Sequence record: AP019521.1
From: Escherichia phage KIT01
Length of the DNA stretch: 64,000 nt
Strand: one strand, 5' to 3'
Positions 4,848 to 51,815 of the stretch are shown piece by piece (position 1 is the stretch's first letter; every line of letters starts with the position of its first letter). Both the position numbers and the translations under genes were made by a program. Under the pieces are notes generated by a model that saw only the letters and a list, made by a program, of their open reading frames with translations, did not search any database and was not told where the DNA came from.

Positions 4848-4880
4848 AGGAGAATATTATCCCATTTCACTTAAAGCATA
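4848..4880 (-). promoter_or_regulatory. candidate MotA-dependent middle promoter for gene 39
   Basis: minus strand reads tATGCTTTAAg (MotA box) - 12 nt - TAATAT, about 20 nt before the gene 39 SD. Confidence 0.45.
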
Positions 4881-32572: not shown

Positions 32573-32601
32573 TGTATTATAAATCAATATTTTAAAGCAC
32601 T
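32573..32601 (-). promoter_or_regulatory. candidate MotA-dependent middle promoter for rpbA-like gene
   Basis: minus strand GTGCTTTAAA - 11 nt - TATAAT. Confidence 0.45.
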
Positions 32602-32607
32602 TAACGT

Positions 32608-32802
32608 TTAATCAAAGTATTCATAAACGAACCAGGCAGGGTTCCTGTTCGACATGATTCTATCATACTCTGACTTAAAAGCATTTCGGAGATAATCTTC
32701 AGTAACAAGATGTTCGTCTCCAGAGAAGTTATTAACTAAAACATACCGCTTTAGTTCAGGAACGGCCAACAAATGCTGGCCTGTTATAAAATTGGAAGCC
32801 AT
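32608..32802 (-). CDS. hypothetical protein
   Basis: 64-aa ORF. Confidence 0.4.
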   Translation of the reverse strand: MASNFITGQHLLAVPELKRYVLVNNFSGDEHLVTEDYLRNAFKSEYDRIMSNRNPAWFVYEYFD

Positions 32803-32845
32803 ATAAATATCTTTATCAGTCGCTGTATCAAATAAGGATTTGATA

Positions 32846-33562
32846 ATGAATTATAAATCAATATACGAAAAGCTTATTCAACGAGCAGTTAATAGAAATT
32901 TAACTACCTATAAAGAACGTCATCACATTATACCACAATGCATGGGTGGGACGGATGACGCTTTAAACTTGGTAGACTTAACACCTGAAGAACATTACTT
33001 GGCTCATCAGTTGTTAGTTAAAATCCATCCAGATAACGCATCGTTAGTCTACGCAGCAAGAATGATGACAGTTAGCTCACCAAAAGCTGATAGGTCTAAA
33101 AATAAATTATTTGGATGGCTTCGTCGTAAGAATTCAGAAGCCCAAAAGGATAAAGAATTCTCTGAAGAAACCAGAAAGAAAATGTCAATTTCTGCTTTAA
33201 AAAAGCCTAGAGTTACCTGTCCACACTGCGGCAAAACTGGATTGGTAGGCAATATGAACAGATGGCATTTCGATAACTGCCCTAAAGGCCCTAATAAAGT
33301 GGACCGCTCTATATCTGAAGAGCAAAAATTAAAAATAAAGAAAGGCCTAGAAAACATGGTCTATAAAATTGTGGAATGTGAATTCTGCGGCCTTTCAGGA
33401 AAATCCTGTGTTATTGCCTCTCATAAAGTTTTTTGTAAGAAAAATCCTAACGGGCGCAAAAAAACAGAAAAGAAGGTAGAATGCCCTCATTGTGGTAAAC
33501 AAGGGAATTCCGGTAATATGAATCGTTGGCATTTCGATAACTGTAAAATGAAGCCTCAATAA
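32846..33562 (+). CDS. free-standing HNH homing endonuclease with repeated zinc-finger modules
   Basis: ATG at 32846 after AAGGA; HNH core HHIIPQCMGGTDDALNLVDLTPEEHYLAHQ; three CxxC..C modules, two near-identical (CPHCGK.G..GNMNRWHFDNC). Confidence 0.8.
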   Translation: MNYKSIYEKLIQRAVNRNLTTYKERHHIIPQCMGGTDDALNLVDLTPEEHYLAHQLLVKIHPDNASLVYAARMMTVSSPKADRSKNKLFGWLRRKNSEAQKDKEFSEETRKKMSISALKKPRVTCPHCGKTGLVGNMNRWHFDNCPKGPNKVDRSISEEQKLKIKKGLENMVYKIVECEFCGLSGKSCVIASHKVFCKKNPNGRKKTEKKVECPHCGKQGNSGNMNRWHFDNCKMKPQ

Positions 33563-33567
33563 GAGGC

Positions 33568-35262: not shown

Positions 35263-35500
35263 CCTTGATGCATGATTCAGCCATATGAATTAATGTTTCT
35301 GGAGTATCATCTACCATTACATTAAAGCTAAATTCCACAGCCCAATCGGTAGCAACATAAACTTTAATAAGCTCGTTGGTATCGCGAGTGCTCACGGCTT
35401 CAAACCAGAACTTAATTGTATTAGGTTGTCCGTCGTCATCAATAACGATACAGTCGTGTTCTAGTTCAAGGCCTGATTTTTTGAATTCATCTAAAGTCAT
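35237..35500 (-). CDS. hypothetical protein
   Basis: 87-aa acidic ORF between 46 and 47. Confidence 0.4.
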   Translation of the reverse strand: MTLDEFKKSGLELEHDCIVIDDDGQPNTIKFWFEAVSTRDTNELIKVYVATDWAVEFSFNVMVDDTPETLIHMAESCIKDAYNDEDF

Positions 35501-36519
35501 CGTGTAACCTCATTATAAAGTTGCGCGGCCATAGTCTTAAGGGCTTTAACATCATCTTCAGTGTGGCCGTCAGGAAGGGCATCGATATAATCATACATCA
35601 TATCCAAGAGGGACTTAACTTCATCTTCCTCTTCAGAATCATCGATATCAACACTGTTATCTACCTTAGACACAATACGTAAAGAATGGACAACCTTTTC
35701 AAGCTCTGATTCGAACTTAGTAAGTCCATCATCGATTTTATCGACTATAACACGAACTGCGATATTTGTAAAATCTTTGTAATCGATAGTCGCATTTGGA
35801 TAATGAATCTTACGGTGCCAACAGGTTTCATTGATGATGAAATCCATCTTATGAGTTTCTGTATCGAAAATCCAGAAGCCGCGAGGGTCATTCTCATCAC
35901 CTGCAGTTAGGGTCCAGGGCGTACCAATATACTTAACGTTTGCTGCATCAGAAATAGTGTGGAAGTGGCCTGACCAAACCTGCTTATATCTCTTAAGGAA
36001 ATCAGGTTCTAAACCATGGGATTTCATTCCTTTATAGAAATAGAAACCATTTAATTCCCAGTGACCTATACAGAAATCTGCCGTGGTATTTTTGATATGG
36101 TCCATGATATCAGTCGTGTTTTCTTCACACATCCATGGAATCAAATCAATTTCGGTGCCATCAAAATTAACAGTAGTAGGTTTCTCGTAAACAGTAAAAT
36201 TTTCATACTGAGTAAGAAGTTCAGAAACTGCATTAGGAGTTATGCTATTTTTAAACGTTGCATCATGGTTACCAATTATAACATGGACTTTAATACCTGC
36301 ATCGCTGATAATTTCCACCAGACCACGATTAAATTCCATACATTTATGGGTGATAGCCTTGCGTACATCGAACCAATCACCATATTGAATCCATGTATCA
36401 ATATTGTTTGCTTTAGAATATTCTACAGCCTGTTTAATACCGTTAAGCTGGATTTTCTGAATCCAAGGGTCATCGGCTTTTACTCCGATATGCAAATCAC
36501 CTATATTCAAAATTTTCAT
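35497..36519 (-). CDS. 47: recombination endonuclease subunit (Mre11/SbcD-like)
   Basis: 340 aa; phosphoesterase motifs GDLHIG, GNHD, GHWE matching T4 gp47. Confidence 0.9.
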   Translation of the reverse strand: MKILNIGDLHIGVKADDPWIQKIQLNGIKQAVEYSKANNIDTWIQYGDWFDVRKAITHKCMEFNRGLVEIISDAGIKVHVIIGNHDATFKNSITPNAVSELLTQYENFTVYEKPTTVNFDGTEIDLIPWMCEENTTDIMDHIKNTTADFCIGHWELNGFYFYKGMKSHGLEPDFLKRYKQVWSGHFHTISDAANVKYIGTPWTLTAGDENDPRGFWIFDTETHKMDFIINETCWHRKIHYPNATIDYKDFTNIAVRVIVDKIDDGLTKFESELEKVVHSLRIVSKVDNSVDIDDSEEEDEVKSLLDMMYDYIDALPDGHTEDDVKALKTMAAQLYNEVTR

Positions 36520-37370
36520 AATCTACCTTTATAATGTATTTCACTATTAAATTCTATCTCAGAAATCATAAAGCTTTTTATGCCGTCATTAGCCCAGATT
36601 TTCTTAGGTCTAGTAATTGTAACTGTAGGCTTAAAAATTTTATAAACCAAATTGTGATAATTACCATCCATAAAACCTTTAGCTAAAGCTATTTCTCTAA
36701 ATTTATACGGTGGCAAAAATCCAGTAGAAATCCAAAGCTCTTTTAATTCTTTTTGAATATCAGGGTCATATATCCCATCGGTCTTTTTCAAGTTTTTCTT
36801 ATGTTCATCGGTTAGAAAACTGCCAAGGACCCAAGATTCAGGTTGTTTTCCTTCTACAAATAATCCTTTATCAACGCCATTGTTATACCACTTCTTACCC
36901 TTATTATGACTAGATGCTTTATAATTAGGAGAACGACCTTCTACGTATCCTTCGGGGACTGTAGGTGCAAAGGTTTGTTCTAATGTAACAGGATTATAGG
37001 AATGAATATATCCTTTGGCATTATGAGAGCCATAAAGAGGGTGTTGCTCTTTAGGTAGCGAAAGCCCAAAGAATCCTTTAGGAGCGGCGACAGCCCTATT
37101 AAAGAATAGAGGATTTTGGGCTGCGTCAGTTCTTAACTGGTACATTCTTTCAGCTTCTAAAGCCTCTTCTCTTGTAGGGTGTTCGCTTACAATACACGAG
37201 TCGAATAATTCAGGATGCTCTAAAAGCTCATTTTTATATATTTCTTTATATGCTTTAGAAAGGACACTCCCGTGATACCCTTTCAAATGCTTCTCCAAAG
37301 TGGTAGACCCTATATAAAACGGTGGAAGCTTAGTCCCGGAATATATTGTCAGGTATGTGATGTATTTCAT
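36516..37370 (-). CDS. GIY-YIG homing endonuclease (Seg-like)
   Basis: 284 aa; N-terminal YITYLTIYSG...FYIGST, conserved R and E (EALEAER); sits where T4 has 47.1/alpha-gt. Confidence 0.7.
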   Translation of the reverse strand: MKYITYLTIYSGTKLPPFYIGSTTLEKHLKGYHGSVLSKAYKEIYKNELLEHPELFDSCIVSEHPTREEALEAERMYQLRTDAAQNPLFFNRAVAAPKGFFGLSLPKEQHPLYGSHNAKGYIHSYNPVTLEQTFAPTVPEGYVEGRSPNYKASSHNKGKKWYNNGVDKGLFVEGKQPESWVLGSFLTDEHKKNLKKTDGIYDPDIQKELKELWISTGFLPPYKFREIALAKGFMDGNYHNLVYKIFKPTVTITRPKKIWANDGIKSFMISEIEFNSEIHYKGRL

Positions 37371-37396
37371 AGATTTATTTTATCATCCATTCAGAA

Positions 37397-37422
37397 AGCA
37401 AAAAAGGAGCCTAAGCTCCTTT
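37397..37422 (-). terminator. intrinsic terminator
   Basis: minus GGAGC-UUAG-GCUCC followed by UUUUUU. Confidence 0.5.
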
Positions 37423-38139: not shown

Positions 38140-38370
38140 TTAATCCTTTGGAGTCAATTCAATAGTGAAGTAGAAATTAGCGTTCTCAACATGATAACGA
38201 TAATCTACGTTATTGTCAGGAGAAGTGAATTCAATATTCCTGACGTTAAGTGGGTCAATATCAATAGGAAGGCCTTTAACATCCCGTAATATCAATTTAA
38301 TAAAATAAGGGAGTGCTTCGAAGTCTTCCATTCCATCTAAAAGTGGAGTGATATTAATCTGATGTTCCAT
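38140..38370 (-). CDS. hypothetical protein
   Basis: ORF overlapping 3' end of gene 55; start uncertain (ATG 38370 or GTG 38406). Confidence 0.35.
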
Positions 38371-38911
38371 ATAAAAAATCCAGTTCACCAACTTTAGGTT
38401 CGGCACTCTTATCAGACCCTGGTGCTTTAGTTAAAGAGGTTTCATACTGAGTCATTTTGTCGTAGATATCTTGGATAAAGGTTTCATCTGCAATACCTAC
38501 CATGTCGTCATCATTACTGTCATAGACATTATGGACGAAGTAGCTATATTTCTTTGCCATTTCTTTACGTTCTTTTTTGATACGCTGAACGAAGGCATTA
38601 AAACAAGCCATAGTGATATATGCATGTGGGTTGTCGTATTTTGTTTCGTCGAAGTTGTGAAGACCTTTAATCGAAGCTTCGATTCCATCAGCAATCATTT
38701 CTTGCTTCCAAGATTGGGTATATCCTGAGAAGTTGAAACGTTTACTTAGTCCTTCAGCAATGAGCATAATAGCCAAGCCAATAACGTCGTTCTGGCGAAC
38801 TATTTTATTAGGATCGGTATTTTCTCTGAGCTCTGTTTTCCATTGGGTGATAGCTTTCAGAAGCTCCTTATTATTTACATAGTTATTTTTAGTCAGTTTA
38901 ATTTCGGTCAT
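38354..38911 (-). CDS. 55: late transcription sigma factor
   Basis: 185 aa; [16 protein letters not shown]...[58 protein letters not shown] essentially identical to T4 gp55. Confidence 0.92.
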
Positions 38912-41955: not shown

Positions 41956-42429
41956 TCATTTAAGCGATTTCCTCAGTTGTTTTTTGAATGAATCCACCAT
42001 TTGTTTCTTAGTGGCAGATTCATTATAAGTCATTCCATGTGAAAGCATTTCAGCAATCATTTCTTCCTTACCCAACCTGCTGAACTCTTTGGTTTTATCA
42101 GGAACGAAATTAGGATGAATATTGTTTTCAGTATAATCAGCTTTCAGATAGACCAGCAAATTCTCTAACCATTCGAGGTAGTCAACGTTTTGACCTTTAA
42201 GACCAGAACGGTTGAACTTATGCTTCATTTGTCCTTCTGCAGCATTGCACAGGTTACATAGTAAACCACGAACCTTACCGGCTTTTGGCCCGTTCAATTC
42301 ATGGTCGTGGTCAAGGTGGTTACTTTGAACATCAGGGTTTAATTCACGTTTACAAATCAAACACTTACCACATTGTACATCATAAAGTTTTTGTTTTTCT
42401 TCTTTGTATAATTTGCCGGTCAACAACAT
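41956..42429 (-). CDS. 49: endonuclease VII (Holliday junction resolvase)
   Basis: 157 aa; MLLTGKLYKEEKQK.YD.Q.GKCLIC.RELNPDVQ.NHLDHDHELNGPKAGKVRGLLCNLCNAAEGQMKHKFNRSGLKGQ nearly identical to T4 gp49. Confidence 0.92.
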   Translation of the reverse strand: MLLTGKLYKEEKQKLYDVQCGKCLICKRELNPDVQSNHLDHDHELNGPKAGKVRGLLCNLCNAAEGQMKHKFNRSGLKGQNVDYLEWLENLLVYLKADYTENNIHPNFVPDKTKEFSRLGKEEMIAEMLSHGMTYNESATKKQMVDSFKKQLRKSLK

Positions 42430-51254: not shown

Positions 51255-51815
51255 TTAAGAGTTCATAGTTGGGATAACAGAGTTCAGATAAGAGACTAAA
51301 ACTTTTAGCTCGTCTTTAGTAAATACCACTTCATTTTCACCGTCGTGTCTTTGGGTCAAGGATAGTAAATCACGGCCCTGATATTGATACACGGTTAATT
51401 CGGTATCATAATCCAGTTCTTCTTCATCACCTTCAAATGTTTCACTAGAACGAATCACCGCATCTTGACCTGGGACTTTCCATTCAACTTCCGGATGGCA
51501 TTCTTCCTGGAACAGTTTAAAAATACATTTAAAGAAATTAGCAGAATCACTAATGCTTAGGCATTCTTTGTCAGTTTCGATATTAAACCCAACTTCATGT
51601 TTATAAATTTTGGCCCATACATCGCTGTTAATATCAATCGAGGCACTATGGCGTCCATCAAGATAATCCTGTTTGTCCAAAACCTTTAAATCGTAAAGTG
51701 GTTTGATATCTTGGATAGTCAGTACGATTTTATCGTCTTCTTGTGAAAGCACAATTGCATTATCAACTACTTCAGCGGTCAGTTCGCCAAACAATTCAGT
51801 TGTTTCAATAATCAT
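51255..51815 (-). CDS. hypothetical acidic protein
   Basis: 186-aa ORF. Confidence 0.45.
   Translation of the reverse strand: MIIETTELFGELTAEVVDNAIVLSQEDDKIVLTIQDIKPLYDLKVLDKQDYLDGRHSASIDINSDVWAKIYKHEVGFNIETDKECLSISDSANFFKCIFKLFQEECHPEVEWKVPGQDAVIRSSETFEGDEEELDYDTELTVYQYQGRDLLSLTQRHDGENEVVFTKDELKVLVSYLNSVIPTMNS

Follow-up and report, generated by a model that had tools for sequence, protein, structure and literature searches.

The reading frame between a-gt.2 and gene 47

The window analysed here is a stretch of 64,000 nucleotides from Escherichia phage KIT01 (sequence record AP019521.1), a Dhakavirus of the JS98-like T-even phages. Between its homologue of T4 a-gt.2 and gene 47 lies a separate, intergenic reading frame, annotated below as a homing endonuclease gene (HEG); the genes upstream of it are homologues of a-gt.2, a-gt.3, a-gt.4, a-gt.5 and 55, and no intron-like structure was seen around it. 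The features at the locus are as follows.

35497–36519, minus strand: gene 47, Mre11/SbcD-like recombination nuclease subunit (Pfam Metallophos; PHROG_100, SbcD-like, E 8e-133)
36516–37370, minus strand: free-standing HEG, long form, stop codon included (from the reading frame, homologues, PHROG matches and dN/dS)
37377–37400, minus strand: putative MotA-type middle promoter of gene 47, TGCTTTC-N11-TAAAAT (from a pattern match and relatives)
37403–37422, minus strand: intrinsic-terminator-like hairpin after a-gt.2, kept in Dhakavirus relatives

The HEG is a real open reading frame, which begins with ATG and encodes 284 amino acids; its translation starts MKYITYLTIYSGTKLPPFYIGST, as quoted in an earlier note on this DNA. 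The databases contain 255 homologues of it at E ≤ 1e-3 (best E 8e-192); it matches PHROG_10820 (8e-83) and PHROG_314 ('homing endonuclease', 1e-17), and displays a dN/dS of 0.036–0.037 when the window copy is compared with those of phages LQ5 and SHP1. With this many homologues and a dN/dS of about 0.04, the frame is clearly not a chance one; intact copies are under purifying selection and their function is maintained. The TGA stop codon (36518–36516) overlaps the gene 47 ATG (36519–36517) in the sequence ATGA, so that 4 nt are common to both genes, in agreement with the overlap described earlier.

In T4 the interval from gene 47 to a-gt.2 holds 47.1, a-gt and mobB, and the earlier placement of the frame 'where T4 has 47.1/alpha-gt' is therefore right as synteny; its exact positional equivalent is 47.1. 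The 47.1 gene of phage JS10 is 144 nt long and also overlaps gene 47 by 4 nt, as the HEG does, and homology between the window and JS10 stops at 37374 and restarts at 36521, which gives precise boundaries for the insertion. The HEG fills the T4 gene 47.1 slot in a nearly exact ORF-for-ORF swap with JS10 47.1.

The promoter pattern TGCTTTC-N11-TAAAAT has 11 matches in the window (3.6 ± 2.0 in shuffled sequence), and the same element lies upstream of JS10 47.1 and RB69 gene 47, both of which have a normal leader and GAGG. The HEG ATG starts 7 nt past the end of the putative -10 element, with no Shine-Dalgarno sequence upstream of it. Judging from the sequence, the HEG may be poorly expressed, and its expression would come by read-through or from a leaderless middle transcript. 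A Shine-Dalgarno-like AAGG(T)AG for gene 47 is found at about 36524–36530, inside the last codons of the HEG, and purine-rich (K/R)GR codons also stand right before the gene 47 ATG in the metagenomic relatives L012, L013 and L015. Upstream of the HEG the best 8-mer for a T4 late promoter (TATAAATA) was AATAAATC, which matches at 6 of 8 positions by eye and is unconvincing, and a scan for sigma-70 promoters gave matches no commoner than in shuffled sequence.

Domains and family of the protein

The protein can be divided into four predicted segments.

37071–37370, minus strand: divergent GIY-YIG nuclease domain, aa 1–100; key residues Y6/Y10, Y19-I20-G21, K27, H33, E74 and N91
36816–37070, minus strand: linker, aa 101–185, with HPLYGSH and a first 'NKGKKWYNNG...W.LG' beta-hairpin module (predicted strands 122–125, 132–135, 159–163 and 168–172)
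36624–36764, minus strand: putative DNA-binding domain of three helices, HTH-like, aa 203–249
36519–36608, minus strand: second 'KKIWANDG' beta-hairpin module (strands 257–261 and 266–270) and C-terminal KGRL, aa 255–284

The earlier note had described a Seg-like GIY-YIG protein and named profile searches as the evidence that could overturn this, and these searches gave a borderline answer. Pfam GIY-YIG (PF01541) matches aa 4–81 with E 0.021 and 15.6 bits, under the gathering score of 22.6; the same model matches 19 of 40 homologues at E ≤ 0.1 (best 4.9e-4), and hhalign of the HEG family against I-TevI gives E 0.0038. Taken alone, the sequence evidence is thus no more than suggestive. When the protein and the family profile were searched against PDB sequences, neither retrieved a GIY-YIG protein, and an NCBIfam search returned nothing relevant. 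The AF2 model of the protein (mean pLDDT 86) has the three-stranded antiparallel sheet flanked by helices of the GIY-YIG fold, its best match among solved structures is the I-TevI catalytic domain, and 55 structures in BFVD that match it at E ≤ 1e-3 bear the names GIY-YIG, Seg-like, NUMOD or group I intron endonuclease. The identity proposed earlier, a free-standing, Seg-like GIY-YIG endonuclease, is thus supported, mainly by the predicted fold and by family-wide evidence.

In an alignment of 121 sequences Y6, Y10, Y19, G21, E74 and N91 are invariant, so that the YIG, Glu and Asn motifs are kept; the first motif is YLTIY rather than a literal G-I-Y, and Y19-I20-G21 is invariant or nearly so. 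The hhalign alignment pairs E74 with I-TevI E75, the catalytic Glu, and N91 falls near the downstream Asn, I-TevI N90. Canonical GIY-YIG enzymes have an arginine that is held to be essential (R27 in I-TevI). Position 27 of the HEG protein, in helix 25–29, is Lys; of the 121 sequences 89 have K there, 19 R, 12 N and 1 A. The helix bearing I-TevI R27 falls in a gap of the hhalign alignment, without a strictly conserved counterpart in the HEG family, and R67, which is nearly invariant in the family, lies elsewhere in the fold than I-TevI R27. In the linker, HPLYGSH looks like a NUMOD3-like element, seemingly a remnant, when read by eye; Pfam NUMOD3 (PF07460) has no match in the HEG protein and is found in the linker region of 19 of 40 more distant relatives.

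The likeness to I-TevI (the T4 td intron endonuclease; PDB 1LN0, 1MK0), the best structural match from aa 1 to about 100, extends to the alignment of YIG and of H33 with H40 as well as E74 with E75, and to a modular order of nuclease domain, long linker and C-terminal helical DNA-binding domain. The T4 Seg proteins (SegA–G) are also free-standing and intergenic, with the GIY-YIG domain at the N-terminus and the region for DNA binding at the C-terminus; among the viral structures that match the HEG model are proteins named 'Seg-like' and 'GIY-YIG_SegABCDEFG', and two members of the HEG family weakly match Pfam SegE_GIY-YIG. T4 is not among the matches listed by tblastn (60 of 173 records). Cleavage by Seg enzymes, SegB for instance, yields mostly 2-nt 3' overhangs. 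Unlike the T4 Seg proteins as these are described, the HEG protein has a divergent catalytic domain with YLTIY as first motif, an invariant Y32-x-G34...S38 loop and K/R at position 27, and it has no recognisable NUMOD3, with WYNNG hairpins and an HTH-like domain instead. Like the Seg genes, of which two papers describe a patchy occurrence and the co-transfer of flanking markers (PMC2330249, PMC2988022), the HEG is patchily distributed among close relatives.

States of the slot and the gene 47 mosaic

A hand count from the megablast list gives about 38 distinct Dhakavirus-like phages with a match to gene 47, and 17 loci were checked by hand. HEG DNA is present in 9 of the approximately 38, and 3 of these 9 have the long form or the deletion derivative of phage vB_EcoM_005. 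The uninvaded state is represented by JS10, with 47.1, and the intact long form by the window, LQ5 and SHP1. IME08 carries a short-form chimera of 205 aa with a different C-terminus; the homology of IME08, IME540 and QL01 ends at 36877 (HEG nt 494), and the recombination point with the short-form C-terminus lies at about this position. Phage 005 has a 99-bp in-frame deletion in the HEG, by which residues 203–235 are gone, and in Bp7, PSD9, E33 and ABTNLS3 the HEG has been cleanly lost between 10-nt direct repeats, leaving an identical scar in all four. The IME08 record has no annotation for the HEG, and in both IME08 and IME540 gene 47 is annotated too long. The repeats, and the part of gene 47 considered below, are placed as follows.

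37360–37369, minus strand: direct repeat 1, TGAAATACAT, HEG nt 2–11; one copy in the deleted phages
36534–36543, minus strand: direct repeat 2, TGAAATACAT, HEG nt 828–837
36180–36519, minus strand: 5' end of gene 47 (about 340 nt, gp47 aa 1–113), 'type A' allele co-inherited with the long-form HEG, from an identity comparison

Recombination between the two copies of TGAAATACAT takes out 826 bp, and exactly one copy remains in Bp7, PSD9, E33 and ABTNLS3, where it fuses the HEG start to the last 18 nt of the gene. The Dhakavirus series matches the stages expected of an HEG, namely the uninvaded site, the intact gene, the swap of its C-terminus, in-frame decay and clean loss.

The slot is also taken by homologues of 57–73% identity in the metagenomic relatives L012–L015 and in Mosigvirus LF82-4, and by a 64%-identical short form in Tequatrovirus fPS-90; a homologue in KPV15 likewise lies upstream of gp47. 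The wider family is spread over other loci, with multiple copies in some contigs. Only 3 of its 80 IMG/VR loci have a gp47 homologue directly downstream (in a fourth, L030, a 28%-identical gp47 homologue adjoins on the opposite strand), and linkage to gene 47 is therefore a trait of the subfamily rather than of all proteins with this N-terminal domain. Sandegren et al. (2005) are said to have described SegH and Hef as taking over the loci of mobC and mobE in T4-related phages. The present locus is similar in that one intergenic slot has alternative occupants (47.1, long HEG, short HEG or nothing); it differs in position and in the proteins concerned, and the displaced 47.1 is not an HEG. T4 mobB, an HNH gene between a-gt and a-gt.2, is likewise a mobile endonuclease gene in the interval from 47 to 55, but it belongs to another nuclease superfamily, occupies another position and is absent from the window.

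The type A tract of gene 47 displays 64–67% nucleotide and 60–62% amino acid identity to JS10, IME08 and IME540, compared to 93–97% and 99%, respectively, for the remainder of the gene (gp47 aa 114–340). To LQ5, SHP1, 005, Bp7 and PSD9 the tract is 96–100% identical at the nucleotide level, and full-length megablast matches to it occur only in LQ5, E33, PSD9, ABTNLS3, Bp7, SHP1 and 005; Bp7, PSD9, E33 and ABTNLS3 have thus kept the type A allele after losing the HEG. A comparison of RB69 (no HEG) with LF82-4 (HEG) reveals the same mosaic, with the break at about nt 360 of gene 47. No donor of the type A tract was found, the closest sequence being that of metagenomic L012 (77% nucleotide identity). 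These patterns are consistent with co-conversion of gene 47 from nt 1 to about 340 together with the long form, as a correlation between sequences. The gene 47 sequences of T4 and fPS-90 are 90–100% identical in every 60-nt bin, and since the short-form HEG of fPS-90 is not accompanied by a divergent gene 47 allele, the co-conversion picture fails for some members. Most comparisons between lineages show stronger divergence in the first third of gene 47 than further on, and a general hot spot, not this HEG, could account for part of the mosaic.

The earlier suggestion of a recombination-prone junction holds for the sharp breaks at about 36877 inside the HEG and about 36180 in gene 47, and not for the a-gt side. 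A HEG-linked identity break was sought upstream, from a-gt.2 to gene 55, and none is present; only JS10 differs there, independently of the HEG. The sequences do not reveal a cleavage site. The alternation of Trp and Leu in GD(W/L)H was considered as a marker of the target site, GDLH being found in the long-form genomes of the window, L012, L013 and LF82-4 and GDWH in T4, JS10 and short-form genomes; two exceptions, GDWH in the long-form genome L015 and GDFH in RB69, which has no HEG, led to the rule being abandoned.

Probable homing, alternatives and a possible role in the evolution of gene 47

We consider it probable that the frame is a free-standing Seg-like HEG residing in the 47.1 slot and homing together with its gene 47 flank. 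The protein would comprise a divergent GIY-YIG nuclease domain, an extended linker with 'WYNNG' beta-hairpins and a C-terminal three-helix, HTH-like DNA-binding domain, and its gene would lie between the middle promoter of gene 47 and gene 47 itself, where uninvaded relatives have 47.1. During mixed infection the enzyme would cut the genome of a HEG-less relative in or near the region of 47.1 and the gene 47 start, and the phage recombination machinery would repair the break using the HEG-bearing genome as template. Repair would bring in the HEG and the neighbouring ~340 nt of gene 47, up to its first strongly conserved block. We infer the nuclease activity of the protein and the position of its cut site, whereas presence and absence of the gene at a fixed site among near-identical genomes is observed. 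Non-reciprocal transfer of such genes with flanking DNA has been described for Seg and Mob endonucleases (PMC2330249, PMC2790892).

The most serious alternative, which we nevertheless regard as unlikely, is a domesticated or inactive GIY-YIG relic, kept for the ribosome-binding site and coupling of gene 47 or for regulating the 47/46 operon as a DNA-binding protein. Such a relic would account for the Lys in place of the canonical Arg at position 27, for an ATG that follows the putative -10 element by 7 nt without a Shine-Dalgarno sequence, for the placing of AAGGTAG for gene 47 in the last HEG codons beside the ATGA overlap, and for the retention of precisely the last 18 nt of the HEG in the deletion derivatives; the low dN/dS also indicates that some function is selected. 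However, Y6, Y10, Y19-I-G, E74 and N91 are invariant in the 121 relatives, and the HEG is dispensable, because four phages have deleted it and most Dhakaviruses never had it. Its patchy spread, the repeated use of one site across several genera and its foreign flank bear the signature of an HEG that is, or was until recently, active. That it is instead an HNH endonuclease, the label given by RefSeq and PHROG, is hardly credible: HNH appears in database names only (PHROG_10820; vB_EcoM_005, QL01, fPS-90 and LF82-4), no Pfam HNH family is matched at E ≤ 0.1 by the HEG protein or 40 homologues, the modelled fold matches GIY-YIG nucleases, and the protein has the YIG, Glu and Asn motifs. The window does encode a genuine HNH homing endonuclease, at 32840–33562, and the HNH_5 match and zinc ribbons seen there are missing from the HEG protein.

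Two further readings concern the history of the site. The 65-nt 'empty' sites of Bp7, PSD9, E33 and ABTNLS3 might be the ancestral target, with the 10-nt repeat made on insertion, as illegitimate insertion can give a duplicated 10-mer around the insert. This is very unlikely, as the 'empty' sequence contains the HEG start codons ATGAAATACAT (M-K-Y-I), which are conserved in other genera, and the HEG end TATAAAGGTAGATTATGA (Y-K-G-R-L-stop), which is conserved in P0002–P0005, and as all four phages bear the HEG-linked type A tract of gene 47. The earlier note had also tied the endonuclease to a missing alpha-glucosyltransferase, and in T4 both a-gt and another HEG (mobB) do lie inside the interval from 47 to a-gt.2. 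Nevertheless, it is highly improbable that insertion of the HEG displaced a-gt or marks its loss at the junction. JS10, without the HEG and with 47.1, also lacks a-gt, nine Dhakavirus loci aligned across the interval from 55 to 47 have no room for a-gt whatever the state of the slot, and none is annotated there in E33 or ABTNLS3. It is also missing in Bp7, PSD9, metagenomic relatives and RB69, which has neither a-gt nor HEG, and is listed as 'T-even type phages only' (PMC2993671), a restriction that further weakens the link. In Tequatrovirus fPS-90, a-gt, 47.1 sequence and a homologue of the endonuclease are neighbours, and the glucosyltransferase link therefore fails; the lack of a HEG-linked identity break upstream speaks against it as well.

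Returning to a homing gene that carries its gene 47 flank, a broader proposal, which we put forward tentatively and consider rather doubtful, is that the HEG makes up an exchangeable cassette together with the first third of gene 47, in which HEG-driven conversion would repeatedly swap the N-terminal catalytic module of gp47 between lineages. By our reading, gp47 aa 1–113 would include the Mre11-type phosphoesterase motifs GD(L/W)H, GD.FD and GNHD, and the junction at about nt 340–360 of gene 47 is found in at least two genera, Dhakavirus and Mosigvirus. If this were true, the HEG would be built into the expression of gene 47 through the promoter, the leaderless HEG, the internal ribosome-binding site and the ATGA coupling.

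Among the known sources of mosaicism in T4-like phages, free-standing HEGs are a common one, and the HEG itself is therefore ordinary. The locus offers a compact natural series of the stages in the life cycle of an HEG in sequenced, culturable coliphages; it also corrects the annotation of a family widely named 'HNH endonuclease' and removes a tempting link to DNA glucosylation. That the N-terminal third of gp47, an essential Mre11-like protein, shows HEG-linked allelic replacement in two genera matters for phylogenies based on gene 47 and for the use of 46/47 as core markers. If the swapped gp47 alleles differ in function, possibly in sensitivity to host or rival-phage inhibitors of gp46/47, a selfish element would be driving the adaptive diversification of the very nuclease that its homing needs.

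The endonuclease gene and its nuclease domain

The homing endonuclease ORF (HEG) and gene 47 share four bases, ATGA, at 36516–36519, where the TGA stop of the former overlaps the ATG of the latter:

36516..37370, minus strand: HEG, ATG start, 284 aa, N-terminus MKYITYLTIYSGTKLPPFYIGST
35497..36519, minus strand: gene 47, Mre11/SbcD-like nuclease subunit (Pfam Metallophos; PHROG_100 at 8e-133)

After gene 47 come 46.2 (Pfam T4_Y03C) and then 46, while upstream of HEG lie homologues of a-gt.2 (DUF5486), a-gt.3, a-gt.4 (DUF2654), a-gt.5 (DUF5491) and the late sigma factor gp55. Re-reading the ORF and sequence confirmed the coordinates, peptide and 4-nt overlap given in an earlier note, as well as its placement of the gene at the T4 47.1/alpha-gt position, since the T4 interval from 47 to a-gt.2 contains 47.1, a-gt (alpha-glucosyltransferase) and mobB. 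As listed, the a-gt.5 homologue (38140-38406, noted together with 38354-38911) starts with a GTG at 38406 (88 aa), but its true start is probably internal, because its annotated length in relatives is 228–231 nt (about 76 aa) and matches to Pfam and PHROG begin at aa 13–17.

The earlier note also described the product as a Seg-like GIY-YIG protein and looked to profile searches for support. Taken by themselves, sequence profiles are borderline: the protein's own Pfam GIY-YIG score (E 0.021, 15.6 bits) falls below the gathering score of 22.6 bits, whereas 19 of 40 homologues match at E ≤ 0.1 (best 4.9e-4). Among these 40, two match SegE_GIY-YIG, 19 NUMOD3 and two the I-TevI zinc finger. NCBIfam gave no relevant match to the HEG protein, and neither this protein nor the 40-member family profile found a GIY-YIG protein among PDB sequences. 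An AlphaFold2 model made from the family alignment (mean pLDDT 86; aa 1–90 at 90–98) predicts strands at 3–10 and 18–24, helices at 25–29 and 42–51, a strand at 56–64 and a helix at 67–80. The top three Foldseek matches in the PDB were the I-TevI catalytic domain (1mk0, 1ln0; probabilities 0.87–0.99), beyond which nothing was better than E 2.5, and 55 predicted viral structures matched at E ≤ 1e-3, many named GIY-YIG, Seg-like, NUMOD-containing or group I intron endonuclease. The family aligned to I-TevI residues 1–97 by hhalign (E 0.0038), pairing FYIGS with VYVGS, GYHGS with GCHSS, LFDSCIV with VFECSIL and E74 with E75; the I-TevI query matched the 1LN0 and 1MK0 chains (E about 2e-63), the sole difference in the printed 1MK0 alignment being that entry's E75A change. 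Y6, T8, Y10, G12, P16, Y19, G21, Y32, E48, F56, E74 and N91 are invariant in 121 aligned relatives. The canonical first-helix arginine (I-TevI R27) is not clearly present, position 27 being lysine in the HEG protein and, across the family, lysine in 89 sequences, arginine in 19 and asparagine in 12. On this family-wide and structural-model evidence the nuclease domain is a divergent GIY-YIG domain, and the Seg-like assignment stands. Public records commonly call the family 'HNH endonuclease'.

From about aa 100 the model enters a low-confidence linker in which HPLYGSH, judged by eye, resembles the last part of a NUMOD3 repeat. I-TevI and Seg-type enzymes usually consist of a nuclease domain, a long linker and sequence-reading modules, and HEG has this build of nuclease domain, long linker and further modules in common with them.

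States of the slot upstream of gene 47

All matches to the surrounding 4-kb region with a genus-level assignment belong to Dhakavirus (Tevenvirinae). Identity to the window is 96–97% in Escherichia phage LQ5, Salmonella phage SHP1 and vB_EcoM_005, and about 91–97% in the matching parts of JS10, IME08, Bp7, QL01 and others. The distribution of HEG within this group is patchy, its DNA occurring in nine of about 38 distinct Dhakavirus-like phages with a gene 47 match (our own count from the rows of the gene 47 megablast listing). In JS10 the slot holds a 144-nt gene 47.1, again with the 4-nt overlap onto gene 47. Homology between the window and JS10 ends at 37374 and restarts at 36521, and therefore the 852-nt HEG coding sequence stands in for about 155 bp of JS10, nearly ORF for ORF.

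HEG is full-length in LQ5 and SHP1 (23 and 36 nucleotide changes, 3 and 4 amino acid changes), and these intact copies are under purifying selection (dN/dS 0.036 and 0.037 against the window). In vB_EcoM_005 an in-frame 99-bp deletion removes aa 203–235 of the three-helix (HTH-like) domain. IME08 and IME540 encode a 205-aa form, which shares the first 165 aa, diverges from the NKGKKWYNNG motif on and has a C-terminus like that of the 205–208-aa short forms common in Tequatrovirus-like phages; we infer the same form in QL01, NC-G, Esco_phi_B-01 and Ec2-ASingh because only the same 5' 57–58% of the HEG DNA matched. The 205-aa endonuclease is unannotated in the IME08 record, and the gene 47 annotations of IME08 (1104 nt) and IME540 (1095 nt) overshoot the 1023-nt gene by 72–81 nt.

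In Bp7, PSD9, E33 and ABTNLS3 the slot is a 65-nt gap (...CTATGAAATACAT joined to TATAAAGGTAGATTATG...), in which the start of HEG is fused to its last 18 nt through a single copy of a 10-nt direct repeat that the window has twice:

37369..37360 and 36543..36534, minus strand: two copies of direct repeat TGAAATACAT

On both sides of the gap stand HEG codons that distant homologues conserve, so that these are deletion scars rather than virgin sites, and it is unlikely that the empty sites are ancestral.

The same slot is occupied in other lineages. In metagenomic T4-like contigs, homologues of 73% (L012), 71% (L013/L014) and 62% (L015) identity adjoin gene 47 on its upstream side and share the 4-nt overlap. 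The slot holds a 271-aa homologue in Mosigvirus LF82-4 but only a 69-nt spacer in RB69, and in Tequatrovirus fPS-90 a 207-aa homologue is placed exactly at the gene 47 ATG, with a-gt and the 3' sequence of 47.1 (present, though unannotated) retained upstream. Klebsiella phage KPV15, too, carries a homologue on the upstream side of gp47; it matches in two tblastn pieces and is annotated as a pair of hypothetical proteins, and the gp47 match is split as well. A frameshift, a sequencing error or a further copy in decay could account for this. The wider N-terminal-domain family comprises 152 stretches in IMG/VR, scattered over other loci and sometimes in at least three copies per contig, with a gp47 homologue immediately downstream in only 3 of the 80 IMG/VR loci listed. 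Two environmental phage contigs (3300008266_000538, loci L036/L049/L068; 3300008120_000180, L039/L050/L072) carry at least three GIY-YIG N-terminal-domain paralogues at different loci, which fits a proliferating family. At a further locus (L030) a family member has as its neighbour, on the other strand, a gp47 homologue of 28% identity.

A linked tract in gene 47

The first ~340 nt of gene 47 in the window are 96–100% identical to LQ5, SHP1, 005, Bp7 and PSD9, but only 64–67% identical to JS10, IME08 and IME540, as distant as the window is from T4; from nt ~360 on, identity is 93–97% across all of these phages. Compared with relatives carrying the divergent allele, gp47 is 60–62% identical over aa 1–113 and 99% over aa 114–340, and dN between the window and JS10 falls from 0.30 in the first part to 0.004 in the remainder. 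By megablast the full-length allele was confined to three phages with long-form or derived HEG and the four scar phages. The Mosigvirus pair RB69 (without HEG) and LF82-4 (with HEG) is 59–64% identical over nt 1–360 and 95–100% thereafter, and no comparable HEG-linked break was found upstream of HEG in loci aligned across the 55–47 interval. These patterns argue that a single inherited block spans the 3' part of HEG and the 5' third of gene 47, stopping at the first strongly conserved stretch of that gene. This third is the most divergent part of the gene in most inter-lineage comparisons, although it encodes conserved phosphoesterase motifs. The short form in Tequatrovirus, without a linked tract, does not follow this pattern: T4 and fPS-90 gene 47 are 90–100% identical in every 60-nt bin, except for four clustered synonymous changes at nt 9–18, where the last HEG codons overlap the gene. 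The recombination-prone junction proposed earlier is borne out.

A second homing endonuclease gene lies by gene 46:

32793-33566 (segment), ORF 32840..33562, plus strand: PHROG_655 'homing endonuclease' (7e-69), weak Pfam HNH_5, zinc ribbons

It is antisense to its neighbours. The 774-bp segment is an insertion precisely at the boundary of 45.2 and gene 46, and 005, IME08 and JS10 lack it. Next to it, the 3' end of gene 46 shows just 82% identity to 005, against 95–99% elsewhere, and the 46/47 recombination-nuclease operon is therefore bracketed by two different endonuclease genes, each with a divergent flank.

Expression signals, proposed homing and alternatives

Putative expression signals lie around HEG.

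37422..37403, minus strand: terminator-like hairpin after a-gt.2
37400..37377, minus strand: TGCTTTC-N11-TAAAAT, putative middle promoter directly after the hairpin
125-148, 4854-4878, 32576-32599, 37377-37400, 42022-42047, 51727-51751, minus strand: examples of MotA-box-like sites from the pattern search

The promoter layout matches the MotA box and minus-10 of T4 middle promoters. A search with TGCTTYM-N10-13-TANNNT finds 11 sites in the window, where shuffled sequence gives 3.6 ± 2.0 (0 of 100 shuffles reached 11); seven are on the minus strand, that of the genes around HEG. JS10 has the same element ahead of 47.1, and RB69 has it ahead of gene 47; in both it comes with a normal leader and a GAGG. 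In the window, L012 and L013 the HEG ATG lies 7 nt past the -10 element, so that a transcript from this putative promoter would be leaderless or nearly so, and no Shine-Dalgarno sequence precedes the ATG in these three. The last HEG codons, AAA GGT AGA TTA TGA, form a purine-rich stretch and a coupled start, and probably supply the ribosome-binding site of gene 47; it is exactly this part that the deletion scars keep. Weak expression of HEG with conservation of the gene 47 signals is plausible.

The alternatives differ in how they fare. That the protein is domesticated or inactive, and kept for gene 47 expression, seems to us improbable, at roughly one chance in eight. An HNH enzyme, as labelled by PHROG_10820 and several RefSeq records, is rejected, there being no HNH profile match in the protein or in the 40 homologues. 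A connection with loss of a-gt, the missing glucosyltransferase to which the earlier note tied the junction, also fails: nine Dhakavirus loci aligned across the 55–47 interval have no room for a-gt in any state of the slot, no a-gt is annotated there in E33 or ABTNLS3, and fPS-90 has a-gt and a HEG homologue side by side. Petrov et al. (PMC2993671) list alpha-gt for 'T-even type phages only' and JS98 as without glucosyltransferases. The absence of a-gt is a lineage trait unrelated to HEG.

HEG is best read as a classical free-standing homing endonuclease. During co-infection the enzyme, whose activity and cut site we infer, would cut HEG-less relatives near the 47.1/47 start; recombinational repair would then copy HEG in together with flanking DNA, and after its spread the gene would decay or be lost. 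Such a course has been described for SegB and MobE (PMC2330249, PMC2790892). HEG is a new example of a well-known kind of element, and what it adds is a complete series of life-cycle stages and the repeated replacement, linked to HEG, of the N-terminal third of gp47.
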